DNA of 64,000 bases, from the sequence record PZ445514.1; one strand, 5' to 3'. Source of the DNA: a phage. The stretch's first letter is position 1. Each line of letters starts with the position of its first letter. The notes under the pieces are model-generated. The model was given only the letters and a program-made list of their open reading frames with translations. It was not told the DNA's origin and searched no databases. Position numbers and translations under genes: made by a program. Of this stretch, positions 5,714 through 47,774 are shown one piece after another.

Positions 5714-6172
5714 TCAACACTTTTTGTACTCTACTACAACCACATCAATATCTGTGGTTGCAAGATTAATTACATCTTCTACATGTTCCCACTTTAGACC
5801 GCCAATACCGCATCCGATTTTAGGAATGTAGAACGGCAATGACACACCTTTGAATACCTCGTTGACTCGCTCAAAACCTTTCATGATTGAGAAGTATTCA
5901 GCATTGGGCCCTGGGTAGAACTGGGTATACAGGTTGATTCCATATACGACCCTGTTCTTGGCAAAATGCTCCCAACAAGAAAACATACCCAGCTTGTCTA
6001 GATTCCCATAAGCAGTCTCTTTGTCGGCTGCCAGTGCTTGAGGGAACTCACGGGCAATATCTTTCGCTATGCCTGCACCCATTGTGTGAAAGCAGTTACA
6101 ACCGTGGATCATGTGGCCTGACCCTTTCTTGAAAATGGAGATTAGATCTCCCTTTACAGTATCAATAATCAC
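5714..6172 (-). CDS. macrodomain protein, OARD1/TARG1-like putative ADP-ribose hydrolase
   Basis: By-eye match to OARD1/TARG1 signature from memory: VKGDL, H-x-C-N, MGAGIA, PKIGCGIGGLKWEHV; start uncertain (GTG at 6172 with GAGGAG upstream, or ATG at 6211). Confidence 0.7.
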   Translation of the reverse strand: MIIDTVKGDLISIFKKGSGHMIHGCNCFHTMGAGIAKDIAREFPQALAADKETAYGNLDKLGMFSCWEHFAKNRVVYGINLYTQFYPGPNAEYFSIMKGFERVNEVFKGVSLPFYIPKIGCGIGGLKWEHVEDVINLATTDIDVVVVEYKKC

Positions 6173-6587
6173 GGTATTCCAGCTCCTCTTCTGCAATTTC
6201 CAAAAACTCATCCCAACCCTGTGGCATATTTGAGTTGCCGAAGTGGCTTTCGTAGTAGAGATTTTTACCACTTGGAAGGTAGAAATCTGTTACCTCATAG
6301 AATCCACAATCGTCGCACTCACCTTCTTCAAACTTGGCCTCAACCTTAATACCGAGGAAGGTGAAAAGTTTATGGATATCTTCAGTTTCGAACTCCCAGT
6401 GAATGTTGTTTTCCGCATCGGTGTAGAACTGGATCAGCAGACCATTGTCCAGTTTACCAAAATACTCTGTGAAGTAACTTCCTTCCCAGAAATCTTTATG
6501 ACAAATAATATCCATGCGTTTGCCCATAATAATGGTGTGAGCGTTTTGGGCATCGTCACGAATCAGTTTTGGCATTTCATAGATCAT
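6162..6587 (-). CDS. hypothetical protein, translationally coupled to macrodomain gene
   Basis: 141-aa ORF with GGAGAA upstream; 3' end overlaps the macrodomain gene start. Confidence 0.6.
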   Translation of the reverse strand: MIYEMPKLIRDDAQNAHTIIMGKRMDIICHKDFWEGSYFTEYFGKLDNGLLIQFYTDAENNIHWEFETEDIHKLFTFLGIKVEAKFEEGECDDCGFYEVTDFYLPSGKNLYYESHFGNSNMPQGWDEFLEIAEEELEYRDY

Positions 6588-7428: not shown

Positions 7429-8655
7429 TTAGAATGGGATGTCATCATCAAAGGCGTACTGTGCTGGATTCTGATCCATCGGGTCATCTTCCTCGTCATT
7501 TACAGGAGGAGCGTCTACAGTGTTTTGCTGTGGAGCTGCTTCCTGTTTGGCAGCTTGAGGTTCTTGATGGTCAGTGGACTCAGCACCGTTCTTGATCCAA
7601 TCGTACAACGGCTCAGCCAGATTAGTCAAGACATCTTTTGCTTCTGCAGTAATTGCCGCTGCAAAATCATCAACTTTCGTTTTCTTGTCAATACGGCGAC
7701 AAGCGTTCAACACCGCATTACCGACACTGGCACCTACTTCATCTTCAGTTCGGTTGGTGGCTTGAGCATACTCTTTCTTAAGCTCAATGGTGACTACGTG
7801 CAGTGTTTTAGCCACGCTTAGTGGGTCATCCACTTTAAACCCGCGATCCAGGATGATCTGCAAAGCATTGATGCTATGCCCCGTCTCTACACCAATAGGG
7901 TCGTAAGAGGATTTACGCTTGCCACCAGAGCCTTGAGTGCCGTTCTCTGCCTTAGGTGGATAGGCTTTGAAACCACTGATAATGTTTCCGGTGTCTTTGT
8001 CAACAATGGCTGCAACACGACCACCTACTACCAGGTCTTTAAGCTGCTCATCAGTGACAACCATAGCACCTTCGCCAATCTTGTGGTCATTAACAGTAAC
8101 CACGTTGCCAACAATCTGAGTCACATCACCATAGATGCGTAAAACGTCCTGATTGGCATTCTGCTGAGGTTTCTGCTTCTGGCCTTGTGATTGTGCACCT
8201 TGTTGCTGTTTTTGCTGTTGAGTCGCTGCTGGGGCCTCTCCTGCACCCAGCTTAACCATTTTAGCCAGTGATCCTTTATAATAGGTCTTACCGTTATGCT
8301 CGTTTGCCTTCAAAGGGATATTTACGATCCATCCCGGCGTTACGGTTTCCCACTTGTCATCAATTTTAACAGAGACAGAGTCTTGATGACCAGGTTTAAG
8401 CAGCTTATCACCCATACTGATCCAAACTTCTTCACCACCTTGAAGCAGGTTATCAGAGGAATCCAGTTCAGAAATCAGTAAAGAGATGGTGTGGCTGGAT
8501 TCAATTTTCTTACCTTGCCACACAGTGGTTTTAATACCTGTTGTAGGATCAGCACCTTTGATAGGTTTGATGCTGACACGTTTAATCATGCCGTGAGCCA
8601 GTAAAACAGTTTCACGCGGATTCATCGGGTTAGCAAATTGTTGAATAACGCTCAT
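7429..8655 (-). CDS. putative ssDNA-binding / replication accessory protein with SSB-like acidic C-terminal tail
   Basis: 408 aa; Q-rich low-complexity linker; ends ...AFDDDIPF, the same tip as E. coli SSB; AAGGAG upstream. Confidence 0.55.
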   Translation of the reverse strand: MSVIQQFANPMNPRETVLLAHGMIKRVSIKPIKGADPTTGIKTTVWQGKKIESSHTISLLISELDSSDNLLQGGEEVWISMGDKLLKPGHQDSVSVKIDDKWETVTPGWIVNIPLKANEHNGKTYYKGSLAKMVKLGAGEAPAATQQQKQQQGAQSQGQKQKPQQNANQDVLRIYGDVTQIVGNVVTVNDHKIGEGAMVVTDEQLKDLVVGGRVAAIVDKDTGNIISGFKAYPPKAENGTQGSGGKRKSSYDPIGVETGHSINALQIILDRGFKVDDPLSVAKTLHVVTIELKKEYAQATNRTEDEVGASVGNAVLNACRRIDKKTKVDDFAAAITAEAKDVLTNLAEPLYDWIKNGAESTDHQEPQAAKQEAAPQQNTVDAPPVNDEEDDPMDQNPAQYAFDDDIPF

Positions 8656-9020
8656 TATTTGTCTCCTTGTTCTTCGTTAGTGTTTGCCGTGTGTGCAAAC
8701 CCTGCTTGAATTAATTTGTCCTGAACTTGAGCCAGCAGGCCCATTGCAAAACTTGTGGTCCCAGAGAGGGCCATCAGCATATCTCGTTGTTGAGCTACCC
8801 AACCTAAGGCATAGTCCAAACGACGATATTTTTCTTCTTCACGCAAAGCTTGGAATAATTGTTCAGCCTCTGGCTGTTGTGTGAGCTCCTGAAGTCTTCC
8901 CATGAAAGAAGAAAGCACTAGCAGAAGAGACACTTGATCTTTACTTAACCCTAAGAAAAATTCTTGAGGTTGTTCTTGCTCGTTCATCGCAACCGACGCT
9001 TGATCGTTCATTTGTTCCAT
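8655..9020 (-). CDS. hypothetical protein
   Basis: 121-aa ORF with GGAGA upstream; TAATG overlap with next gene. Confidence 0.55.
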   Translation of the reverse strand: MEQMNDQASVAMNEQEQPQEFFLGLSKDQVSLLLVLSSFMGRLQELTQQPEAEQLFQALREEEKYRRLDYALGWVAQQRDMLMALSGTTSFAMGLLAQVQDKLIQAGFAHTANTNEEQGDK

Positions 9021-9103
9021 TATGGAATCTCCGATTTTATTTGAACAACATAGAAGGAGACACTATTTTAGCATCCCCTTCTGTAAATTACAATAGGTAT
9101 TTG

Positions 9104-9349
9104 TTAGCCAATCACTTCGAAAGTTCCCCAATTCCCGTCCAGCAGGCAGGTGATCGGATCTCCATCGTCGTCAAAGATTTCAAAGTTTTCAGCATCCAGG
9201 ATGTGGCCCTCGAACACAATACTCTCGTCGCCACCACCAGAAATAACAGCGTATTCCTTACCTTGAGTCAAGTTTTGACACCCTTTGCCACCAAAACCTA
9301 CTTCCACACAACGTACTTTCTGTCCTGCGCGAGCAACTACTTCAGCCAT
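9104..9349 (-). CDS. hypothetical small acidic protein
   Basis: 81-aa ORF with AGGAGA upstream. Confidence 0.55.
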   Translation of the reverse strand: MAEVVARAGQKVRCVEVGFGGKGCQNLTQGKEYAVISGGGDESIVFEGHILDAENFEIFDDDGDPITCLLDGNWGTFEVIG

Positions 9350-9366
9350 CTTAAGGTCTCCTGATA

Positions 9367-9669
9367 TTAATCGTCAAGTTCAAAATAGATTTTAACAGCT
9401 TCATCAAAGATTGGAATCCCGATGTTGTTGATAAGCTGCCAAACTACCATATCTTTACCTGGATCTGGGAGAATGTCAACCTTTCTCCATGCGCTGTATA
9501 TCCAGTTCGGACCACCTTCTGCACTAACTGGCAGATTTTCACCAGCTTCCTGTAGATACTTATACAGCAAAAGATATTCTGGATACTCTAGAACACTGTC
9601 CTCTGTAGTATATAGCAGTTCACGGTATACTTTTAAAAACCCTGCGGGGGTGATGTTTTCAGTCTTCAT
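9367..9669 (-). CDS. hypothetical protein
   Basis: Start set to ATG at 9669 preceded by CAGGAGAAG; overlaps upstream stop. Confidence 0.5.
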   Translation of the reverse strand: MKTENITPAGFLKVYRELLYTTEDSVLEYPEYLLLYKYLQEAGENLPVSAEGGPNWIYSAWRKVDILPDPGKDMVVWQLINNIGIPIFDEAVKIYFELDD

Positions 9670-10048
9670 TTGCTGCTTCTCCTGCATTCATCAGATCTGC
9701 CATAGCGTCACCAACGAAGAGGACAACCACATCGTTGACAGCGTCAGCATCATCTTTGTTGACGTTGCTGAATTTAGGACACACAGCAATGATCATATAG
9801 ACACCGTTGCCCACCTGAACTGTCCGTGTGGTGCACATCATGGCGGTATTTGTGCCTTCTTTGAAGGCGAAGCCTTGAAGACGCTCCTCTAGAGTGTTAC
9901 CGGTAGATTTCAGAAGCGCCAGCTCGTCCAAGGCATAGATGATATCTCCGGAAGTTAGTGTTGCCTTTCCATCAGACACCATAATCACTCCATCAGCACC
10001 GTCAAGCTTAGAGGCTTCAAAGATATCAATATCCCAAATATTTTTCAT
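9659..10048 (-). CDS. hypothetical protein
   Basis: ATG at 10048 with GAGGA upstream; ATGA overlap with upstream gene. Confidence 0.55.
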   Translation of the reverse strand: MKNIWDIDIFEASKLDGADGVIMVSDGKATLTSGDIIYALDELALLKSTGNTLEERLQGFAFKEGTNTAMMCTTRTVQVGNGVYMIIAVCPKFSNVNKDDADAVNDVVVLFVGDAMADLMNAGEAANED

Positions 10049-10320
10049 CACGCTTCCTCGTCGTCTAAGTAATCATCAAGAGAGGTGAAGATTTCACCGA
10101 AGTATTCTAAGATTTCTAGCTCACGTGTGGTGCAGCAAACATAATCTCCTTGGTCGTCCTTAATAGTGGCCTCTTTACCCAGAATATCTACTTCAAGTTC
10201 ATCGTTCAACAGGACGGCCCCTGTGTAAACTTTGTCAGCTGTGCAGTCCCGAAAAGCAGAGTCCTTCTCCAGATAGTCTGGCTTAACCTTGGCTTTAATT
10301 CGTTGATATTGTTTGGTCAT
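10048..10320 (-). CDS. hypothetical small acidic protein, paralog of 10384-10638
   Basis: Shares AFRDCT..Y and KDDQGDYVCCT motifs with neighbour; start set to ATG after AAGGGG because ORF-track start is TTG inside a hairpin. Confidence 0.5.
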   Translation of the reverse strand: MTKQYQRIKAKVKPDYLEKDSAFRDCTADKVYTGAVLLNDELEVDILGKEATIKDDQGDYVCCTTRELEILEYFGEIFTSLDDYLDDEEA

Positions 10321-10383
10321 TGCTGTGGTCCCCTTTCGTTTTGATAGGGCCATTATAGTAGGCCCTATCACTGTTGTCAAGTA

Positions 10384-10638
10384 TTAATGTTCAGGTTTTA
10401 CAAAAACTACTTCATTAACAGTGCACCAGACAGAGTCTCCTTCATCATCTTTAAAGGTAAGGCACTGTGCTGAGTTTTCCAGCTCATCGATCTCTTCTTG
10501 TGATAAAGGGGCCCCTTCTTCCAGGAGGGCTTTTACCAGAGGGTTCTCACAAAACTCTGCTTCATAAATTGCACCGACTGTGCAATCTTTAAAAGCTCGG
10601 TCATTTGCAACGCATTCTGACTTCAAAGTAATTTTCAT
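10384..10638 (-). CDS. hypothetical small acidic protein, paralog of 10048-10320
   Basis: 84-aa ORF with AAGGAG upstream; AFKDCT and KDDEGDSVWCT motifs. Confidence 0.55.
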   Translation of the reverse strand: MKITLKSECVANDRAFKDCTVGAIYEAEFCENPLVKALLEEGAPLSQEEIDELENSAQCLTFKDDEGDSVWCTVNEVVFVKPEH

Positions 10639-10689
10639 CTTAGCAGTCTCCTTAGTTATTTAAAAATCAACGCTCTGTTTGTGTAAAGC

Positions 10690-10718
10690 ATCTTATATCT
10701 AATCTTACTTCTTGTCAA
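10690..10718 (-). promoter_or_regulatory. candidate sigma70 promoter (TTGACA -35, 17 nt, TAAGAT)
   Basis: Consensus -35 with weak -10 upstream of gene starting at 10638. Confidence 0.3.
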
Positions 10719-11086
10719 TGACTATTTTCAATCAGCCACACAGGGTCGAGGTAAATTTGTTGGCGTGTTGCCCAATGACAAACTTCATTGTACATCTGAA
10801 CCTCTTTGTCCGTCAGTTCACGAATAGGCTCATCTATACCCCCATTTTTGTGGTAATCCCAGTCGGCATCGATTTCCCACAGCCATGACTTGTTGTCACC
10901 ACGCTTACGCACACAGAAGTCACCAGGACGGCCTGCCAGTGCATTTAAGAACTCGTTCTCCGCTCGCTCCTGAAGAATACTAAGGAGCAAAACGTTGGAG
11001 CATGACCGTAAAATATGCTTCAGCTCACAATCATCAATCTCAACTTCAATACGTTGTTTGACTGTGTGGGTACCTTTTACTAACAT
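10715..11086 (-). CDS. hypothetical protein
   Basis: Start set to ATG at 11086 preceded by AGGAGG. Confidence 0.5.
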   Translation of the reverse strand: MLVKGTHTVKQRIEVEIDDCELKHILRSCSNVLLLSILQERAENEFLNALAGRPGDFCVRKRGDNKSWLWEIDADWDYHKNGGIDEPIRELTDKEVQMYNEVCHWATRQQIYLDPVWLIENSH

Positions 11087-11096
11087 ACTACCTCCT

Positions 11097-11291
11097 CTAA
11101 ACGAACTCTGCAAGAGTTGTGTTGTTCACTGCACCGCAGTAAATGGAGTATCCCAGCCCATTAGAGTGCAGAAACCACGGCGTGCCGAAATTATCTTTCA
11201 CGTAGACATCACCGTTGTTTGTAAAGGGCCAATATTCTTCCCCAAGGGTAAAATACCTATTCATACCTTCAGCAAGATACTTTACTTTCAT
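11097..11291 (-). CDS. hypothetical small protein, paralog of 11288-11515
   Basis: 64-aa ORF; similar to neighbour over the W-F-(I/L)-(S/H)-x-x-G and Y-x-I-Y(/C)-G motifs. Confidence 0.5.
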   Translation of the reverse strand: MKVKYLAEGMNRYFTLGEEYWPFTNNGDVYVKDNFGTPWFLHSNGLGYSIYCGAVNNTTLAEFV

Positions 11292-11515
11292 AGGTCCTCT
11301 TCAACAACTACAAACTTGGCAAGCAAAGTGGTTCCGTAGATATGATACTCGCCGTTTGCCAGATGGGAGATAAACCAGGCAACCCCTTCCTCGTCTTTAA
11401 TCATTTTATTTGCACGAGCTTTATCGTAATAAACCTCGTAGGTCTTTCCTTCTTTAAAGAATGACAGGTCTGTCATCTTTTCTTCTACAAAAGTAGCTTT
11501 AACCAAAGTTGTCAT
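11288..11515 (-). CDS. hypothetical small protein
   Basis: 75-aa ORF with AAGGAG upstream. Confidence 0.5.
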   Translation of the reverse strand: MTTLVKATFVEEKMTDLSFFKEGKTYEVYYDKARANKMIKDEEGVAWFISHLANGEYHIYGTTLLAKFVVVEEDL

Positions 11516-11829
11516 TGATCGGTCTCCTTCTTGTTAAGTCTGAATACTGCAATAATAGCATTCCCAAGGTGCAGTGTCAAATCATTTCCAAGATACCACA
11601 GCATCCCACGGTCATCTTTAATGAAAGGGTAGCAATTTGGTGCCTTCTCTTTAATGAAAGGGTGACAATCTGGTGCCTTCCAGACATTGTACACTTTCCC
11701 AACCTGAAAGAAATCAGGCCCTGTCGGGATTTTGGTGCCTGGCCACACTTGAGATACCTGAACACACTCCACCTGCATAATAACAGGGATAGTCATGGAT
11801 GTAAATGTTTTTGTTGGCTCTACTACCAT
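11512..11829 (-). CDS. hypothetical protein with internal 11-aa tandem repeat
   Basis: Start set to ATG at 11829 after AAAGAGGAGA; encodes HPFIKEKAPNC / YPFIKDDRGML from a 33-bp tandem duplication. Confidence 0.5.
   Translation of the reverse strand: MVVEPTKTFTSMTIPVIMQVECVQVSQVWPGTKIPTGPDFFQVGKVYNVWKAPDCHPFIKEKAPNCYPFIKDDRGMLWYLGNDLTLHLGNAIIAVFRLNKKETDQ
11615..11680. repeat. 33-bp tandem duplication (2 units) inside a CDS
   Basis: Units starting 11618 and 11651 differ at a few positions; in frame, giving an 11-aa protein repeat. Confidence 0.6.
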
Positions 11830-11878
11830 AAAAGTCTCCTCTTTGCTCAACAACACTTCCATGTGTTGATAGTTTACA

Positions 11879-14656
11879 TTAGTGACAATCACCCCAATTA
11901 CGACCACACAAGTATTCACCTGTGATCTGGAACGGGACTCCCATCATTTTAGAAGCTTGCCAGAAGCAATGCACCACCATTTCACCCACAGGGCTCCAGA
12001 TAAGTTCAAGCTTCCCGTCATCGTTCAGGATAGGATCGTACACCGTGTTTCCGTCTCTGTCAACCACTTCGTTTCCGTTCTCATCCTTGCGTGCCTTTTT
12101 GTACTTATGACCGTCAAACACATGAAGTTTGGCTTCCTGCTCTGCCTTAAATGCTTCCAATTCTTCAATTGTGTCGAAGGTGTACACAGTCTTATACTTA
12201 GGCGTGTCAGGGACTTGAAGTTGGTACTCATCATGGTAATAAATAATACGACGAACACCTTCATCGTACCACCCACGCTTCACCATTTGGTGGTGCATGA
12301 GTATCCCAACTAAGTCACACAACGATGCACCGCCATTTTGTTGGTATGCATTGAGTAAAGAGTGTTTAGATCGAGTCCAGATAGCATGACCATCAAAAGA
12401 GTAGATAAACTTCTTACCCGTTGCTTCCCAGAATTTCTCCAGATCTTCTTTACGCCCCTTAAGACCCGGGTTGGCATCCCAGAGTGCATCGATTACCCTT
12501 TGTCCCAACTCTGGAGAGATATCCAGCATATCTGCAACTTTATCTTTTTGTGCCCCGTACATAACCCCATACGTGATAGGTTTACCGTCGTTACGAGATA
12601 CCTCTCTGCCTGCTACTTTTGTATATGCCTCGGCGTTGTTTTGGTGTGCGTCTCCGTTACTTACAACATCATAATACAAGCCGTTGTCGAACTCAAAGGC
12701 ACCCCAAGCCCCGATAAGCTGCTCTAAGTTGGACCCGTCAATACCGATCTCAAAGTATCCCGGAGGAACACCCCACAGACTACGCATCTCTTTACCCATA
12801 ACCACTTTAGGAGATGGTTTAGGCATGTTCGCACAAATACTGTGTTTCTGTCGGGAAGTGTTTGTTAACCCAGAACTTTTAGCAGGAAGCTTATGGTCAA
12901 TCTTCAAACGTGGGTGATTAAGAAGACCAGTATCAACCTTATCCTCCTTGATTGGATCAAGTACCGATCTGCGGTTTCGCAATGATAACCACAAGACGAT
13001 ATCTTTAGCCATCTCTCCGTTCAATTTTTCAAGATTAGGGCATAGGTGTCCAAACGTATCTTTCAGTTGCGGAGAAGTAATAAGTGCCCTAGCTTTTCTA
13101 CGTATTTTCCCGAATACTTCCTTTTTAATCCTTTCGGAGTTAGGAAAGCTTCGGAACTTGTGCACGGTTGTCTGGAACTTAGCATCAGTTTTGTTCCAGA
13201 AGTTGATAATCAGGTCACAATACTCTGACTCTAAAAGCTCGTCCATATATGCATATACTCGTGCATCAACATCTGCATCAGGTAGAGCTTTCTTCTTGCT
13301 GTCTTTAGTTACATCCTTAGTTCTCCACATTGTCGGAAGCCAACCAGCACTGATCAGGTATCGCTTAATGTCGTCCTGGTTGCTGATTTTCATAGGTATC
13401 TTGCAGTCCGGCATTCGCTTCTGCTGTAGATCACTTATTGCCTGATCCATTAGCTCTTTAGGTAAAGGTTGTGGTGTGGAGGTGCCCTTAATATAGCCTC
13501 TCAAGAAATCAGCCATCTTATCGGGGTCTTTGCAGCCCATCTCTTCACACCATTTTATCCCCATCTTACTGACATCTCCTGTAGAGGTAAATGCTCGCTT
13601 AGGCGGGGCTTTGAACTCTAAAGCGCTCATATCTACAGGATAGCCAAGCTTATCTTTTAACCATTTCCAACCATTATTGGAGATTGTCCCATCTTGGTTA
13701 AACGGCTTTTCAGGGAACTTGGGCCGCTGAGACATTGACAGCTCTTTTAAAGGTAGTTGCGGTTCAACACGATCAGCGATTTCTTTCATCCACGCATCGC
13801 AACGGTCACGTAAAGCAATAGCCCCATCTATGTCAAAATACACACCCTGACGGGCCTGCAGCTCCATCAGGAAGTGCTGCAGCATGCCTCGGCGTAATGC
13901 GTTCTTCCAGGTGATCTTCTTGAACCCTTTCGGCTTCTCTTTGGCAGGATCGTACATAAAGTTCTGCATGTCAGATTTGCCGTAGAATACACCTTTTGAT
14001 TCCGCTACCAGCTCTTTCCAGAGCAGCTCCTGGATGATAACGTCCTCGAATACACGATCCACATACTTCCACAACGGAAGATCGCGCCAGTCATCAATTT
14101 GAACTTTCTGGTTACCAAGGGCGTAGCCCCATGCCATAAGGCCGTGAGGACCGACAGGCTGCATTTTCTTAGTAACCGGGTTGAATACAGAGTCCGGACA
14201 ACCTTTTGGTAAAGGGCGATCAGGCCATAAGATTCGGCTCATCGCCAACGTATCAAACAGGTTGACCTGGTGGTCGTTGATAGTCCCCATGCATTTAGGA
14301 TCACGGAACATATCAAAATGAATACCGGATAATCTTTCCATCAGCATAAAGTCATAACTGTAGCAGTTATGGCAGTTCAAAGCTGTTGGTGACCAGTCGG
14401 AATTGCCTGTAAGCCAACCTTCTAACTCCGAAAAATCTGCTATGCGAACTTCAAAATCTTTATAAAGAGTTTTCTTTGCCAGAATAAAGTTCTTAGCCTT
14501 CTCTATATCCTCCTCGGAGTAGTGTGTGCGGTCATTTAGAGGAAGGAACAGCATAAAACGGTTCTTATTCAGCTCTTTAAACAGGCCGCAGTGATAATAA
14601 AGATCTGGGTCTTCCAGCAAACCGGATGACTCAAAATCGAAAGACCACATGCTCAT
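11879..14656 (-). CDS. DNA polymerase, family A, with 3'-5' exonuclease domain
   Basis: 925 aa; Exo I FDFESSG near N-terminus; Pol motif B K..YGVMYG and motif C YYHDEY; AAGGAGA upstream. Confidence 0.9.
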   Translation of the reverse strand: MSMWSFDFESSGLLEDPDLYYHCGLFKELNKNRFMLFLPLNDRTHYSEEDIEKAKNFILAKKTLYKDFEVRIADFSELEGWLTGNSDWSPTALNCHNCYSYDFMLMERLSGIHFDMFRDPKCMGTINDHQVNLFDTLAMSRILWPDRPLPKGCPDSVFNPVTKKMQPVGPHGLMAWGYALGNQKVQIDDWRDLPLWKYVDRVFEDVIIQELLWKELVAESKGVFYGKSDMQNFMYDPAKEKPKGFKKITWKNALRRGMLQHFLMELQARQGVYFDIDGAIALRDRCDAWMKEIADRVEPQLPLKELSMSQRPKFPEKPFNQDGTISNNGWKWLKDKLGYPVDMSALEFKAPPKRAFTSTGDVSKMGIKWCEEMGCKDPDKMADFLRGYIKGTSTPQPLPKELMDQAISDLQQKRMPDCKIPMKISNQDDIKRYLISAGWLPTMWRTKDVTKDSKKKALPDADVDARVYAYMDELLESEYCDLIINFWNKTDAKFQTTVHKFRSFPNSERIKKEVFGKIRRKARALITSPQLKDTFGHLCPNLEKLNGEMAKDIVLWLSLRNRRSVLDPIKEDKVDTGLLNHPRLKIDHKLPAKSSGLTNTSRQKHSICANMPKPSPKVVMGKEMRSLWGVPPGYFEIGIDGSNLEQLIGAWGAFEFDNGLYYDVVSNGDAHQNNAEAYTKVAGREVSRNDGKPITYGVMYGAQKDKVADMLDISPELGQRVIDALWDANPGLKGRKEDLEKFWEATGKKFIYSFDGHAIWTRSKHSLLNAYQQNGGASLCDLVGILMHHQMVKRGWYDEGVRRIIYYHDEYQLQVPDTPKYKTVYTFDTIEELEAFKAEQEAKLHVFDGHKYKKARKDENGNEVVDRDGNTVYDPILNDDGKLELIWSPVGEMVVHCFWQASKMMGVPFQITGEYLCGRNWGDCH

Positions 14657-32343: not shown

Positions 32344-32607
32344 ATGGCAACAGAGTTAAAATTTGCATCAAACCGTAAAACTAAGAAGTATCTGTCTTCC
32401 GTAGCTCCAGGCACTGTGGTGATGTTTGTTGATGAGCTTGGGGATGTGAATACAGCACTTGTTGTAAAATCACATCCTGCAAACATATATGTTGGGGTAT
32501 TTGACTTGTTCAGAAAGGTGTTTGTAGAACTACCTCACAGTTTGGTTGTTACAGAAATGGATGCCTGCATAGAAATTCTTGGCGAAGTTATGGTGGAGGA
32601 ACAATAA
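32344..32607 (+). CDS. small protein, tandem paralog 1 of 4
   Basis: 87 aa; AAGGAGGAG upstream; shares K-F-x-C/S-G-x-V-V core with next three genes. Confidence 0.6.
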   Translation: MATELKFASNRKTKKYLSSVAPGTVVMFVDELGDVNTALVVKSHPANIYVGVFDLFRKVFVELPHSLVVTEMDACIEILGEVMVEEQ

Positions 32608-32870
32608 TGGCTACTAGCATTGTATTCAATTCTAAGGTGAAGAACAAAAAGCGTGCAGACAGCTTCCCGTGTGGGACCGTGGTAAGTTGTGACGGAGACG
32701 GCATTCAAAACATAGTTATGATTGTCAAAACAGGAGAACATTGTGTGTGGGGGTTTGATTTAGAAAATAATGAGTTGTACGATCTGCCACCAAACATGAA
32801 AGTTACAGAGCTTGACACCAAAATTACCATCCTTGGAGAGACAAGCTATTCAAAAGAAGGAGGAGAATAA
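32607..32870 (+). CDS. small protein, tandem paralog 2 of 4
   Basis: 87 aa; TAATG stop/start overlap; GGAGG upstream. Confidence 0.6.
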   Translation: MATSIVFNSKVKNKKRADSFPCGTVVSCDGDGIQNIVMIVKTGEHCVWGFDLENNELYDLPPNMKVTELDTKITILGETSYSKEGGE

Positions 32871-36236: not shown

Positions 36237-36265
36237 TTGACCCCAACATCAGATCTATGTATGAT
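36237..36265 (+). promoter_or_regulatory. sigma70-type promoter (TTGACC -35, 17-nt spacer, TATGAT -10)
   Basis: Sits about 30 nt upstream of the RBS and ATG at 36296. Confidence 0.5.
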
Positions 36266-36295
36266 TATCTCACCAACCAAACAGGGGAGATCGTC

Positions 36296-36703
36296 ATGGA
36301 TAATCTTGCAAATGTGAACGTCGAAATTGTTAAACTAAAGTTTTTGGGATTTCGAGACCCTAATTCTTTAACAGCCATACTAATGGATACCCACTTCACG
36401 CCAGGGAAAGAGTACACCGCCTTCCGTTATATTTGTGGAGATCACGAATCAGCTTATAGTGTGAATACAAACCTCGGCGAGGGATATTTCATCAGAGATA
36501 TCACAGATCACTTATGGGGAATGTGGGAGTTGGTGGAAGAAGAGAATAAATCCCTTCCTAAAGAGATTTGGGTGCACACCTTCCACACAGGTAAGTTTGG
36601 AGGTACGGAACATAAGTCTATCCACTATGATGAAGAAAGTGCCATCAAACAACAAGCTGTGCTTGGTGGATCTGTAGAAAAATTTGTTAAATGCGAGGAC
36701 TGA
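36296..36703 (+). CDS. hypothetical protein
   Basis: Start set to ATG at 36296 after GGGGAGA; the ORF-track ATG at 36257 lies inside the predicted promoter. Confidence 0.55.
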   Translation: MDNLANVNVEIVKLKFLGFRDPNSLTAILMDTHFTPGKEYTAFRYICGDHESAYSVNTNLGEGYFIRDITDHLWGMWELVEEENKSLPKEIWVHTFHTGKFGGTEHKSIHYDEESAIKQQAVLGGSVEKFVKCED

Positions 36704-44675: not shown

Positions 44676-45719
44676 TTAAGCATAAGATATAGTGATCCAT
44701 TGACCATTTACAAGTTTTTGGATAGCACCTGTCCAGTAGTCACCTTGATAAGGGTGTTTATAAGCGTAGTTACCAGAGCACATCACATGTCCAGGGTAGA
44801 CTCTTGACTCTCTGTAGGTGGTTTTGAAACGGTTTGCTATCCTTACATCATCAACCCCTCTGCTAGGCATAGGAATAGTAAGGTTACCACTGCTGTCTGC
44901 GCCGTTACCATTTACCCTGCGGACCACGTTTCTTCCACCAACTGTTGCATATTGGCCCCTGACGGTTTCATCGTTACAATCAACTCTTCCACCTATTTGA
45001 GCGCTTCCGCAGGATTGTTGTCCATTAACAGTGGCTCTTGGTATAGTAACTGCATTGGCATTTGCAGAGGAACTTTTTGCATCGTTGCATTCAAGATTTC
45101 CTTGGATAGCCAGTCTTGCACGGTTGGCAGTTATAGCATTGAGCTTCATAGCCGAAAACACAGGCTGCCCACCAGAAGGCTGAAATCTCCAACGGAACCC
45201 GTCTATTTGGTGAGAAGGATCATCAAGGTCTGTGCCGTCAGCACCACCGATGTTGTCCATAATCCAGAAATCCATAGTCGTCTTGTCTGGCGTTATGGTG
45301 GTATATATTGCCGCACTGTCTGTTGACGCAGATGCAAACTCGATTCTTTGGAGACCTAAAGTTTGAGTCTGAGTCATTATGTCTCCAGACTTGTCAACAT
45401 ATAGATCGTCCATTTCTTCAGGTGAGTATACATTGAGAACTTGACGTGCAGCAGCTTTGTCTGGAACGTCTGCTAGATTATTAGTGACCCTTAAGAATCT
45501 ATTATCCCATCCTGGGACAACATCTTCTGTTAAATGCTTTAACCACGCAGAAAGCATGTGAAGTTCAAAGTTAACAACTTCACATGCCATTCTTTGTGTC
45601 ATATCCCAACCTTTCAATCTCTCTTCTTTTTTTGGTTGAGACTTATTCAACTCTCCTGTATTTTCAAGCACAACATCCTGATTGGCCCAAATATCAAGAG
45701 GGATAACTGGTTTAGTCAT
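44676..45719 (-). CDS. tail fibre protein, paralog A
   Basis: Paralog of 46734-47774: shared N-terminus and C-terminal LVNGQWITISYA; ATG at 45719 after AGGAGAA. Confidence 0.65.
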   Translation of the reverse strand: MTKPVIPLDIWANQDVVLENTGELNKSQPKKEERLKGWDMTQRMACEVVNFELHMLSAWLKHLTEDVVPGWDNRFLRVTNNLADVPDKAAARQVLNVYSPEEMDDLYVDKSGDIMTQTQTLGLQRIEFASASTDSAAIYTTITPDKTTMDFWIMDNIGGADGTDLDDPSHQIDGFRWRFQPSGGQPVFSAMKLNAITANRARLAIQGNLECNDAKSSSANANAVTIPRATVNGQQSCGSAQIGGRVDCNDETVRGQYATVGGRNVVRRVNGNGADSSGNLTIPMPSRGVDDVRIANRFKTTYRESRVYPGHVMCSGNYAYKHPYQGDYWTGAIQKLVNGQWITISYA

Positions 45720-45808
45720 CACGTTCTCCTGAGAAAATTCCTTAGGACTATTTTAACACTTTAGAGAACAAAATGCAAGAACGGAGTCCTTTCCGTTCTG
45801 ACCTTTGT

Positions 45809-46733: not shown

Positions 46734-47774
46734 CTATGCATAATTAACAGTGATCCATTGACCGTTTACAAGTTTTTGTAAAGGTCCTGCCCAGTAAGTT
46801 GAACCACGCATCTCTTTTTTGTCACCGAAATGCCAGCCTGTGACAACGTAGCCGTTGCGGATTGGAGATTCAGAAACGCCGTCCACAAGTCTTGCACCGA
46901 TTCTGATGTCTTGCACACCTGTCTGCGGGATAGTGATCGTTACATCACCGTTACCGTTAGCCGTCACTCCGTTCACAGAGCGAACCACATTTCTGTTACC
47001 GACAACACAGTGCTGGCTTCTTACAACCATACTGTCACAACTTGCACCACCATTAACATATACTGACCCAGCAGTCAATTGACTAGCCACATTACAGTTG
47101 GTGAATGTTGCGGTATTGCTGATAGTAAGGTTATTACACCTCATGTTATCGACAACTTCAACATTGCCTACCACTTTCAACAGCGCACGGTTAGCTGTGA
47201 TCGCGTTAAGGTACATCAAAGTGAACTCTGGATTAATATCCGGCTGAGTTGGCTGGAATCTCCAACGAAACGCATCTATTGTAGATGTGCCACCATCATC
47301 AAACGACCCAAAATTATCACTTAACCCAAAGTCGAGAGTTGTCTTATCTGGGCCAATAGTTGTCTCTATCCAAGCCTTATCTGTCTCGGCAGCTTTAAAG
47401 TTGATACGTTGCAAACCCAATGGGCCTGTCATTGTATCACCTGTAACTTTTACATACCTGGCGTCTGCCTCTTCCTTGGTAATAATCCCAAGGTTTCTAC
47501 GGGCAACAGGAATGTTCAAAAGATCACTCAAGTTATTATCACGTACCAGATAACGGCCTTCTTGAGCGGGGATCTGCTCGTCAGCAATGTATTTTGCCCA
47601 AGTTCCGAGCATATTGAAAATATAGTTAAGTTCTTCACATGAGGGCTTTTGACCAAGATCCCAACCTTTTCTCCACAAATCATCAATCGGGCGTAGCCTG
47701 TTCTGTCTGTGGGTGTTAGGCAGAACCTGATCCTCCTCTGCCCAAATCTCTAATGGAAAACTAGGTTTTGACAT
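46734..47774 (-). CDS. tail fibre protein, paralog B
   Basis: 346 aa; AGGAGA upstream; paralog of 44676-45719. Confidence 0.65.
   Translation of the reverse strand: MSKPSFPLEIWAEEDQVLPNTHRQNRLRPIDDLWRKGWDLGQKPSCEELNYIFNMLGTWAKYIADEQIPAQEGRYLVRDNNLSDLLNIPVARRNLGIITKEEADARYVKVTGDTMTGPLGLQRINFKAAETDKAWIETTIGPDKTTLDFGLSDNFGSFDDGGTSTIDAFRWRFQPTQPDINPEFTLMYLNAITANRALLKVVGNVEVVDNMRCNNLTISNTATFTNCNVASQLTAGSVYVNGGASCDSMVVRSQHCVVGNRNVVRSVNGVTANGNGDVTITIPQTGVQDIRIGARLVDGVSESPIRNGYVVTGWHFGDKKEMRGSTYWAGPLQKLVNGQWITVNYA

Follow-up and report, generated by a model that had tools for sequence, protein, structure and literature searches.

Several DNA-mimic proteins from phages and plasmids, all small, acidic and made early, have been described, namely T7 Ocr, ArdA, T4 Arn and PBS2 Ugi. 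An earlier note on the DNA analysed here had reported at least two adjacent pairs of small, acidic, early paralogous genes, and read their products as host-takeover or anti-restriction factors, possibly DNA mimics. No sequence or fold similarity was detected between the four described proteins and the paralogs of this locus, half of which are not markedly acidic; one of the paralogs, g5, resembles Ugi in length and pI. A second kind of described protein joins a beta domain to DUF3310 (PF11753), as in the phage families phrog_10602, phrog_236 and phrog_1689, where the beta domain is N-terminal; one such protein, P0092, has two copies of the beta domain found in our locus. The proteins of the locus differ in being stand-alone domains without DUF3310, and a kinase function is not inferable for them; the 'nucleotide kinase' annotation of the DUF3310 PHROGs presumably derives from T7 gp1.7. 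A third comparison is with SH3-like small beta-barrels, such as YorP of the B. subtilis prophage SP-beta (PDB 2HEQ) and the eukaryotic SH3, PWWP and Tudor domains, which are similar in size and strand order and gave the top matches to the g5 model, although these matches were not significant (E 0.39-2.8, TM 0.33-0.46).

The window, that is, the whole stretch of 64,000 nucleotides analysed (PZ445514.1), comes from an rV5-like E. coli phage (Vequintavirus); in the region searched, its identity to rV5_ev147 is 100%. The paralogs occupy a minus-strand block (11829 to 9104) that immediately follows the DNA polymerase gene, and its nine genes, all on that strand, are numbered here from g9, next to the polymerase, down to g1. 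The block opens 50 nt past the polymerase stop codon with three translationally coupled genes, g9 (11512-11829; 105 aa, phrog_12922; ATG at 11829 after AGGAGA), g8 in the centre (11288-11515; 75 aa, phrog_12623) and g7 (11097-11291; 64 aa, phrog_12802), in which the g9 stop overlaps the g8 start and the g8 stop overlaps the g7 start, each time as ATGA. These are followed by g6 (10715-11086; 123 aa, phrog_6273), which sits between paralogs, g5 (10384-10638; 84 aa, phrog_12544), g4 (10048-10320; 90 aa, phrog_11936), g3 (9659-10048; 129 aa, phrog_8284), g2 (9367-9669; 100 aa, phrog_1451) and g1 (9104-9349; 81 aa, phrog_4927). The four genes that had been paired, g4 with g5 and g7 with g8, were all present as ORFs with an ATG start and a Shine-Dalgarno sequence, and for each of them related phages have an annotated ortholog.

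The window proteins are full-length members of their PHROG families (E 1e-28 to 1e-60). Among the block genes, only g2 exceeded the Pfam threshold (DUF7238, 30.8 bits, cut-off 27), no paralog was matched, and an NCBIfam search of the block genes gave no match. Weak local matches to Pfam DUF7244 (g1, E 0.039; the repeat protein P0094, E 2e-4) and DUF7127 (g4, E 0.0097) do not establish membership, because they scored 14.5-21.8 bits against gathering thresholds of 27-27.6. No relation of g6 to the flanking paralogs was detected by PHROG, hhalign, profile ranking or shuffles, and g2 is unrelated to the paralogs by Pfam, PHROG and hhalign. The rV5 genome paper makes no mention of paralogs.

The clearest similarity in the block was that between g4 and g5. 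BLASTP aligned the two with 31% identity over 77 columns (E 4e-9), and the pair was recovered at E 2.6e-6 in an all-against-all comparison of the 432 window ORFs. Their ortholog families matched by hhalign at 96.4% (E 1.4e-9), reciprocal HMM matches among 1362 ORFs ranged from 1e-7 to 1e-8 and were accompanied by PHROG cross-hits, and none of 3000 shuffles attained the observed Smith-Waterman score (Gumbel p 3.7e-8). The motifs AF(R/K)DCT and KDD(Q/E)GD..(C/W)CT were present in both proteins as had been noted, and significant reciprocal similarity extends over most of the domain and includes both shared motifs. At the level of sequence comparison, phrog_11936 and phrog_12544 are linked as one paralog family. 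The neighbouring g3 shares a CTTR motif with g4 and was the best non-self match of the g4/g5 profile by hmmsearch and the second by hhalign, in both cases below significance; a g4-g3 chimera (P0055) was found in public contigs.

The similarity of g7 to g8 was real but weaker than that of g4 to g5, with a single-comparison BLASTP E of 2e-4, a family hhalign P of 1.2e-3, and no recovery at E<0.01 in the all-against-all comparison of the 432 window ORFs. None of 3000 shuffles attained the g7-g8 Smith-Waterman score (p 9.5e-5), a result that survives correction for the 36 pairs formed by the nine genes. The statistical similarity on which the earlier note had staked its two pairs was accordingly found in both, by BLASTP, by hhalign and by shuffles (p ~4e-8 and ~1e-4). 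The second pair is incomplete as described: the closest paralog of g8 is the adjacent g9 (family hhalign 84%, E 7.5e-6), which had been overlooked, and sequence profiles identify a trio of g7, g8 and g9. Also overlooked was g1, which probably joins the trio in the same superfamily with a link at E ~1e-4. A tandem duplication of 33 bp within g9 (11615-11680; TRF, two copies, 90% alike) adds 11 residues (KAPDCHPFIKE|KAPNCYPFIKD) that align with the beta2-beta3 loop of the g8 model; it is missing in HdK5, ECP26, FV3 and S127 and present in cluster P0019. In g1, there is a long insertion between beta2 and beta3.

Each of g7, g8 and g9 consists of a single copy of an all-beta domain of ~60 residues that is specific to phages, and g1 is probably a further single copy. 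The domain follows the pattern G.h.C - FT.GKEY.V - h.I.DD.G - W - F, in which the core aromatics and the DD.G turn are the conserved positions; a reading of the DD.G motif as a DxDxDG-type calcium loop was rejected, as the spacing in the sequences does not fit. When 1.84 billion representatives were searched exhaustively with an HMM, only 14 matches came back, among them tandem-repeat proteins of 2 to 5 copies and also stand-alone copies. An HMM built from external units only ranked g8 (1e-9), g7 (7e-9), g9 (3e-6) and g1 (1.9e-4) as the top four of the 432 window ORFs, a unification that is partly circular for g7, g8 and g9, because the external proteins were retrieved with a profile built from these three, and of which the g1 result is the sole independent part. 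In the isim genome (944 ORFs), the same HMM found the same four, with g1 at 4.3e-4, and a fifth paralog that lies outside the window, isim_172. Both a match to the outside-member profile and a colinear pattern were found for g8, g7, g9 and g1. PHROG cross-links connect phrog_3249, phrog_12623, phrog_12802 and phrog_4927, with phrog_3249, the family of the gene between nrdD and nrdG, as the hub of the superfamily, and the protein P0092, which has two copies of the domain, matches phrog_12623, phrog_3249 and phrog_4927 (the last at 1.5e-4). One profile comparison, A6 against A7, was discarded as circular, since the superfamily alignment A7 contains g1. In PHROGs, the families 12623, 12802, 12922, 4927 and 3249 are separate and unannotated; here they are joined as one domain superfamily. 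No Pfam family and no PDB structure matched the superfamily domain.

The g4/g5 pair stands apart from these genes as a separate, strongly acidic pair, and may be a diverged branch of the beta domain. Against the external-only HMM, g4 and g5 reached E values of 0.7-0.85. Their family profile aligned with the superfamily profile at 42% by hhalign (P 2.7e-4), with the G..Y strand and the KDD.G turn in the same order, and as single sequences g5 and g4 ranked 7th and 8th of 411 ORFs. The secondary-structure elements of the g5 and g8 models map equivalently, and this colinearity of predicted strand order and motifs is why we consider common descent possible. In hhalign comparisons of the g1 family with g4/g5 and of the trio with g4/g5, the DD.G motif alone was aligned (P 0.015-0.14).

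Structure prediction with AlphaFold2 gave an all-beta model of six strands for g8 (pLDDT 87, pTM 0.74), on which all five models agreed, and a model of five strands with a helical insertion between beta2 and beta3 for g5 (pLDDT 78, confident in two of five models). Searches of the PDB with sequence profiles found no credible match for the paralogs, and Foldseek searches of the PDB with the two models found nothing significant: the top 50 lists contained SH3, PWWP, Tudor and EVH1-type beta domains, and the best PDB match of the six-stranded g8 model was at E 0.74. In BFVD, the g8 model matched the model A0A6B9X1Z6 (TM 0.66), a 78-aa isim protein that we equate with isim_172 on the grounds of length and of the annotation 'putative minor capsid protein'; for that annotation of the fifth paralog, the rV5 proteomics paper offers no support in its text. 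The g8 model also matched ~50 other phage proteins at TM 0.5-0.8, many of them at 0.6-0.8, mainly from enterobacterial phages and in a few cases from Enterococcus phages; no credible function is attached to any of them. The agreement of the g8 model with the BFVD models points to a shared predicted fold within the superfamily, g5 and g8 being the two proteins modelled.

To the extent that sequence searches can tell, the paralogs appear restricted to the genus Vequintavirus. Word-indexed protein searches with the trio and with g1, g4 and g5 returned Vequintavirus orthologs only, and when 50,697 phage records were searched by tblastn with g5 and g8, the 116 that matched were all Vequintavirus. 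In Mydovirus, Seunavirus, Certrevirus and a phi92-like phage, no homologs were present in the stretch that follows the polymerase gene. All paralogs are under purifying selection, with dN/dS of 0.07-0.21 for g1, 0.06-0.13 for g5, 0.10-0.17 for g7, 0.12-0.17 for g8, and 0-0.17 for g4, whose highest value came from a misaligned pair (S127) and was 0.11 by codon alignment. Codon alignments were used for g9 and for g4 against S127 (33-bp duplication, indel), and g9 proved almost invariant as a protein, with dN/dS of 0-0.01.

Published transposon data for Bas54 include orthologs of g9 (bas54_0077), g8 (0078), g7 (0079), g5 (0081), g4 (0082) and g1 (0085), and bas54_0077-0082, 0084 and 0085 were all non-essential, with 88-100% of TA sites hit. 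Taken one at a time, the orthologs are thus not needed for growth on E. coli K-12; insertions in bas54_0083, the ortholog of g3, reduced fitness. Such dispensability of single genes also fits an absence of function in laboratory conditions, against which the dN/dS values argue.

The beta domain was found in a replication or nucleotide-metabolism setting in all seven places examined. It follows the DNA polymerase gene in the window, lies between nrdD and nrdG as isim_172, and occurs joined to DUF3310 in PHROG families that bear a nucleotide kinase annotation. In other phages, it adjoins a nucleoside deoxyribosyltransferase with a dNMP kinase ~2.3 kb upstream, lies between DnaB and a Toprim primase, is found near a Prim-Pol, or is located upstream of a D5-type primase-helicase. 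We consider it probable that the block is a lineage-specific tandem gene duplication whose products are beta-domain binding scaffolds for a protein partner. Each protein would be a compact scaffold without evident catalytic residues that acts by stoichiometric binding to its partner in the replication phase of infection, with specificity set by the variable beta2-beta3 loop and the surface. Through duplication, the range of targets would have widened while some redundancy persisted. The most likely partner would be a protein that serves DNA replication or nucleotide metabolism in the host or the phage, since it is in those modules that the domain recurs. This argument from context is weak, because the early and replication arms of phage genomes house most small accessory genes.

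The same neighbourhoods admit a narrower reading, in which the paralogs are accessory subunits or regulators of the phage's own replication or nucleotide supply, docking on the polymerase, the helicase-primase, ribonucleotide reductase or nucleotide kinases. The position of the coupled g9-g8-g7 genes just past the polymerase, the fifth paralog between the nrd genes, the DUF3310 fusions, the neighbours in other phages, and the near-invariance of g9 while dS reaches 0.85 are all in its favour. An association with such neighbours is, however, expected for any early or middle gene, and other Vequintavirinae genera with the same replication genes lack the families at the equivalent position. In addition, none of the orthologs is essential, unlike the polymerase, the primase-helicase and the SSB-tailed protein of Bas54, which were essential in the transposon data. 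We therefore regard this reading as tenable but unlikely.

A broader reading, which we put forward only tentatively and do not expect to hold, is that the FT.GKEY.V ... DD.G domain is a previously undescribed, widespread phage module that serves as an interchangeable docking unit and has been expanded in Vequintavirus. Its docking may be aimed at replication or nucleotide-metabolism proteins; at least five, perhaps eight, copies would then be present per Vequintavirus genome, and the members of the acidic g4/g5/g1 branch might lure away host proteins that bind DNA.

The acidity of that branch also underlies the reading of g1, g4 and g5 as DNA-mimic anti-restriction or anti-defence proteins, which would display negative charge in a DNA-like pattern and so, early in infection, tie up restriction enzymes or other defence proteins that bind DNA. 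The three proteins, of 81-90 residues, carry net charges of -10 to -12 at pI 4.1-4.2 (g4 and g5, pI 4.2 and net -12; g1, pI 4.1 and net -10), and g4 ends in an acidic C-terminal tail, SLDDYLDDEEA. The description of both pairs as acidic holds for g4 and g5 and fails for g7 and g8 (pI 5.0, net -2 and -4), and g9 has a net charge of about 0. Small proteins of this phage are acidic generally (in the window, median pI 4.97, with 35% below 4.5); g1, g4 and g5 fall in about the most acidic decile of them. Acidity alone gives no ground to assume DNA mimicry in this phage group.

Consensus sigma-70 promoters before g4 and g5 are a further point for mimicry, as are the non-essential nature of the genes and their confinement to one genus. 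A perfect consensus promoter (TTGACA-17-TATAAT; 10352-10380, minus strand) lies 31 nt upstream of the g4 start codon, and a sigma-70-like promoter (TTGACA-17-TAAGAT; 10690-10718, minus strand), assigned by consensus match only, lies in the 76-nt gap upstream of g5. They score 12/12 and 10/12 against the consensus and are conserved across species, with both hexamers of the g4 promoter conserved in other Vequintavirus genomes. The -10 hexamer of the g4 promoter is enclosed by a 9-bp inverted repeat on the minus strand (GATAGGGCC / GGCCCTATC; 10343-10369), in which HdK5 has a compensatory double change (GGACC / GGTCC). A terminator-like hairpin (9052-9082, minus strand), annotated as a terminator in HdK5, closes the block after g1. 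Position and sigma-70-like promoters hint at early transcription of the block, putatively by host RNA polymerase; no Vequintavirus transcriptome or time-resolved expression data were found in the literature.

Confinement to one genus, tolerated insertions and sigma-70 promoters are together the profile expected of host-interaction factors, and to this extent the host-takeover part of the earlier proposal stands as an accessory profile. Its anti-restriction part does not fare as well. In the HIDEN-SEQ supplement, in one comparison, insertions in bas54_0081, 0082 and 0085 were not depleted on a clinical isolate (log2FC -0.05 to +0.85, q >= 0.9) on which the anti-defence genes bas54_0063 and 0140 were strongly depleted; we take this isolate to be CFE311 because these two genes are depleted there. 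Mimicry itself was not supported: only three of the six proteins are markedly acidic, sequence profiles matched no PDB entry, the g5 model retrieved SH3, PWWP and Tudor-like domains with E values of 0.39 or more, and no described DNA mimic appeared in the Foldseek top 50 of either the g5 or the g8 model. We judge DNA mimicry by g1, g4 and g5 to be quite improbable.

That the paralogs are spurious or decaying ORFs, similar through a recent duplication of functionless DNA, is scarcely credible: the genes are small and without annotated function, single insertions have no phenotype, and frameshifted or truncated variants occur in public contigs, but the selection analysis contradicts it (dN/dS 0-0.21, dS reaching 0.85), the 116 phage records carry intact genes, each gene has its own ribosome-binding site, the g8 fold is confidently predicted, an identity of only ~30% between paralogs makes the duplication old, and a more divergent lineage (P0086, P0088, P0049) has kept the trio.

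The block is an ordinary case of lineage-specific duplication among phage accessory genes. The modest new point is that five unannotated families unite in one domain superfamily found in replication and nucleotide-metabolism modules. Small uncharacterised genes make up much of every large phage genome, and since five separate families prove to be one domain, the domain provides a single handle on many small phage genes. It turns up repeatedly, arrayed in tandem, fused to DUF3310, and within replication or nucleotide-metabolism modules of unrelated phages. Single-gene knockouts are likely to be uninformative because of redundancy; a binding partner, if found, would probably apply to many coliphage and Enterococcus phage proteins.

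The region from 9000 to 12000 of this rV5-like Escherichia coli phage is 100% identical to Escherichia phages rV5_ev147 and rV5_ev156, with identities of 90-98% to about 115 further Vequintavirus genomes. All genes of the region are on the minus strand, downstream of the family-A DNA polymerase gene (11879-14656), and were numbered by coordinate: g1 (9104-9349), g2 (9367-9669), g3 (9659-10048), g4 (10048-10320), g5 (10384-10638), g6 (10715-11086), g7 (11097-11291), g8 (11288-11515) and g9 (11512-11829). A Shine-Dalgarno sequence is present for all nine; g9/g8 and g8/g7 overlap by ATGA, the stop of g4 overlaps the start of g3, and a terminator-like hairpin (9082-9052, minus strand) is located at the end of the block. 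Co-directional with the block and about 3 kb downstream is a gene annotated in phage HdK5 as a macro-domain protein (about 5714-6271, minus strand). A 408-aa protein (7429-8655, minus strand) contains a Q-rich linker and ends in ...AFDDDIPF, closely resembling DFDDDIPF, the tail conserved at the C-terminus of E. coli SSB. This 408-aa protein probably acts as the phage single-stranded-DNA-binding protein or as a recruiter of SSB partners.

A complete match to the sigma-70 promoter (12/12, TTGACA-17-TATAAT) was found at 10380-10352, 31 nt upstream of the start codon of g4, and is kept in other species; a 10/12 match lies upstream of g5. A 9-bp inverted repeat (10343-10369, minus strand) surrounds the -10 hexamer of the g4 promoter. 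In HdK5 it carries a compensatory double change (GGGCC/GGCCC to GGACC/GGTCC), and three other phages have a change that a G-U pair would accommodate. The repeat may serve as an operator, or may form an RNA hairpin when transcription reads through. Sigma-70-type promoters were predicted genome-wide in the rV5 genome paper, without timing data (PMC3606486), and our literature search found no transcriptome for the genus Vequintavirus. Judged from the sequence, early expression of the block genes is plausible.

The earlier note, made from the sequence alone, had proposed that g4/g5 and g7/g8 are pairs of paralogs, and pairwise tests found statistically supported similarity within both. For g4/g5, for which both of the motifs it quoted are present, the BLASTP E value was 4e-9 in a single comparison and 2.6e-6 in an all-against-all search of 432 window ORFs; the ortholog families aligned with 96.4% probability in hhalign (E 1.4e-9), reciprocal HMM matches among 1362 ORFs reached 1e-7 to 1e-8, the families cross-match in PHROG, and none of 3000 shuffles reached the observed score (p 3.7e-8). 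When 2.3 Gb of phage DNA was searched with g5 by tblastn, 165 places in 116 records were found, and the second place in many records was taken to be g4. The signal for g7/g8 is weaker: BLASTP E 2e-4 in a single comparison, HMM E 0.0075, hhalign P 1.2e-3 (probability 19%) and 0 of 3000 shuffles (p 9.5e-5), the last still holding when corrected for the 36 pairs that nine genes can form. On sequence grounds, paralogy is thus beyond doubt for g4/g5 and less strongly indicated for g7/g8. The window contains two more paralog pairs, tandem 87-aa proteins at 32344-32607 and 32607-32870 (plus strand; 39% identity, E 7e-10) and proteins of about 347 aa at 44676-45722 and 46734-47774 (minus strand; 43% identity, E 8e-93), which short similar ORFs adjoin. 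In addition, g3 and g4 have in common a stretch C-T-T-R on the identical DNA run TGCACCACACG, and a 131-aa g4-g3 chimera (P0055), present on two public contigs, is joined exactly at this run, which suggests deletion by microhomology.

The earlier note had also described the small proteins of the block as acidic and possibly DNA mimics. The first description fits g1, g4 and g5, with pI 4.1-4.2 and net charges of -10 to -12; it does not fit g7 and g8 (pI 5.0, net charge -2 and -4), the small proteins of the window having a median pI of 4.97, with 35% below 4.5. DNA mimicry by the acidic branch g1/g4/g5 is possible, and the negative charge of these proteins is its sole positive support.

The best paralog of g8 was found to be g9, the adjacent upstream gene, which the earlier note had overlooked (hhalign 84%, E 7.5e-6; shuffles p 1.1e-5). 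The families of g7, g8 and g9 align colinearly and share invariant F, G, Y, D, G, W, A and F positions, and an exhaustive HMM search with this alignment against 1.84 billion representative proteins returned only 14 matches at E <= 1e-3, Vequintavirus orthologs included. The domain unit has the approximate pattern G.h.C - [F/W]T.GKEY.V - variable loop - h.I.DD.G(D) - W.h - F..h. Among the proteins retrieved, it stands alone in P0095 (60 aa), is repeated in 2 to 5 tandem copies in P0087, P0089, P0093 and P0094, and occurs twice before DUF3310 in P0092; a divergent lineage again has adjoining g8-like and g7-like genes (P0088 and P0086). Two very long repeat proteins, P0090 and P0091, were taken as spurious matches.

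An external-only HMM, built from non-window units with no window sequence included, placed g8 (1.1e-9), g7 (6.7e-9), g9 (3.2e-6) and g1 (1.9e-4) in this order above all other window ORFs (432 in total); only the recovery of g1 is fully independent, because the external proteins had been retrieved with the g7/g8/g9 profile. In the complete genome of isim, a closely related phage, the same HMM found the counterparts of g1, g7, g8 and g9 and a fifth clear member, isim_172 (121873-122109; L009 21873-22109; 78 aa, phrog_3249), which lies outside the window, flanked by the genes for the anaerobic ribonucleotide reductase and its activase. Its annotation as a putative minor capsid protein has no visible support. 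In PHROG, g7 and g8 both match phrog_3249, isim_172 matches the families of g8 and g7, and P0092 matches those of g8, isim_172 and g1. A 148-aa ORF (36257-36703, plus strand; phrog_15992) matches the superfamily profile over residues 43-96 (HFTPGKEYTAF ... YFIRD; hhalign 67%, P 5e-5), and may be a further diverged copy with a C-terminal module common to phrog_3955 and phrog_11192.

For g4 and g5, which may be a diverged branch of the superfamily, the external-only HMM falls short (E 0.7-0.85), and family profile against superfamily profile gave 42% in hhalign (P 2.7e-4). The motifs align in the same order, AF.DCT.G..Y with fT.GkeY.V and ikDD.GD with I.DD.g, and the predicted secondary structures of g5 and g8 correspond: G..Y is strand 2, h.h.K strand 3, DD.G the turn and the next hydrophobic run strand 4. 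A helical insertion modelled in g5 between strands 2 and 3 coincides exactly with the site of a long insertion in g1 and of an 11-residue duplication in g9. The latter reflects a 33-bp tandem duplication (11615-11680; two copies, 90% alike) that adds 11 residues to the loop and is absent in HdK5, ECP26, FV3 and S127, the remaining g9 protein being almost invariant. Among all window ORFs, the best non-self matches of the g4/g5 profile were the neighbours g3 and g1, below significance (E 0.39 and 0.66; hhalign P 0.018 and 0.006), a preference to which shared acidic composition could contribute.

The g8 model, built from a 31-sequence alignment, has six beta strands without a helix (pLDDT 87, pTM 0.74, all five models agreeing), and the g5 model five strands and helices (pLDDT 78, two of five models confident). 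Structure comparison with the PDB gave no significant neighbour for either: g5 came closest to YorP, a protein of the SP-beta prophage, and next to SH3, PWWP and Tudor domains (E >= 0.39, TM <= 0.46), and the best match of g8 had E 0.74. In BFVD, a set of predicted viral structures, g8 matched about 50 small proteins at TM 0.5-0.8. Enterobacterial phages supply most of these and Enterococcus phages a few; among them are an Enterococcus phage DUF3310 protein and a 78-aa isim protein taken, from length and annotation, to be isim_172. Nearly all are uncharacterised; the names 'tailspike sialidase', 'DNA methylase' and 'minor capsid protein' on matches of 70-78 aa look like annotation errors. No paralog has a family in Pfam or NCBIfam, and none of Pfam, NCBIfam and the PDB covers the paralogous proteins, which PHROG places in families of unknown function.

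Gene-context analysis placed the domain, in every inspectable case, within the arm of the phage genome devoted to early functions, replication or nucleotide metabolism. P0094 adjoins a nucleoside deoxyribosyltransferase, with a dNMP kinase about 2.3 kb upstream; P0089 lies between DnaB and a Toprim primase, and P0087 near a Prim-Pol; in Enterococcus phages the domain is upstream of a D5-type primase-helicase; its DUF3310 fusions fall in PHROGs that carry a nucleotide kinase annotation; and the Vequintavirus copies lie directly after the polymerase gene or between nrdD and nrdG. This recurrent setting is suggestive, and a direct action with the replication or nucleotide-supply machinery would rest on this neighbourhood only; most small accessory genes of phages occupy this same arm.

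Comparisons with four other Vequintavirus genomes gave dN/dS of 0.07-0.21 for g1, 0-0.11 for g4 (with a corrected value for S127), 0.06-0.13 for g5, 0.10-0.17 for g7, 0.12-0.17 for g8 and 0-0.01 for g9 (dS up to 0.85). Since these values are 0-0.21, the six are protein-coding genes under purifying selection, very strong in g9, which contradicts the reading of these six as non-functional ORFs.

A transposon-insertion study (HIDEN-SEQ) of phage Bas54 includes the block orthologs (bioRxiv 10.1101/2025.11.20.689424), and its table coordinates are exactly our tblastn matches in Escherichia phage MaxBurger (MZ501093). The orthologs of g9 to g4 (bas54_0077-0082, in that order), g2 (bas54_0084) and g1 (bas54_0085) were classed 'Non-essential' (Extended Data Table 8), with insertions at 88-100% of TA sites; the g3 ortholog, alone in the block, had 'Reduced fitness', and the polymerase, the primase-helicase and bas54_0087, the ortholog of the 408-aa protein, were 'Essential' (bioRxiv 10.1101/2025.11.20.689424). 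When insertion mutants competed on a clinical isolate, strong depletion was seen for bas54_0063 and bas54_0140, which are anti-defence genes, and not for the g1-g9 orthologs (log2FC -0.44 to +0.85, q >= 0.9; same source). For these figures, the sheets taken as K-12 versus CFE303 and K-12 versus CFE311 carry the same numbers, so that one comparison is probably absent from the supplement text. The ortholog of a 121-aa acidic protein (8655-9020, minus strand), bas54_0086, was 'Intermediate' on K-12 and reached log2FC -3.81 on the clinical isolate (p 0.022, q 0.16); no other gene near the block shows a hint of host-dependent need. Also 'Intermediate' was bas54_0177, between the activator and reductase genes, which from its position would be the isim_172 ortholog.

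The conserved core aromatics and turn motif, with the occurrence of the domain in tandem arrays, which are typical of binding modules, point to stoichiometric binding. The paralogous proteins would most probably bind a protein partner in this way during the replication phase, with specificity coming from the variable loop and surface and redundancy from the paralogs. Large phages commonly carry duplicated small accessory genes, and what is new here is modest: five PHROG families are merged into one domain superfamily with repeat and fusion architectures. The paralogs of the block stem from tandem duplication of a phage-specific all-beta domain. The duplication is old, with only about 30% identity left between paralogs and the trio g7, g8 and g9 retained in a divergent lineage, and its outcome is a set of conserved, individually dispensable accessory genes.
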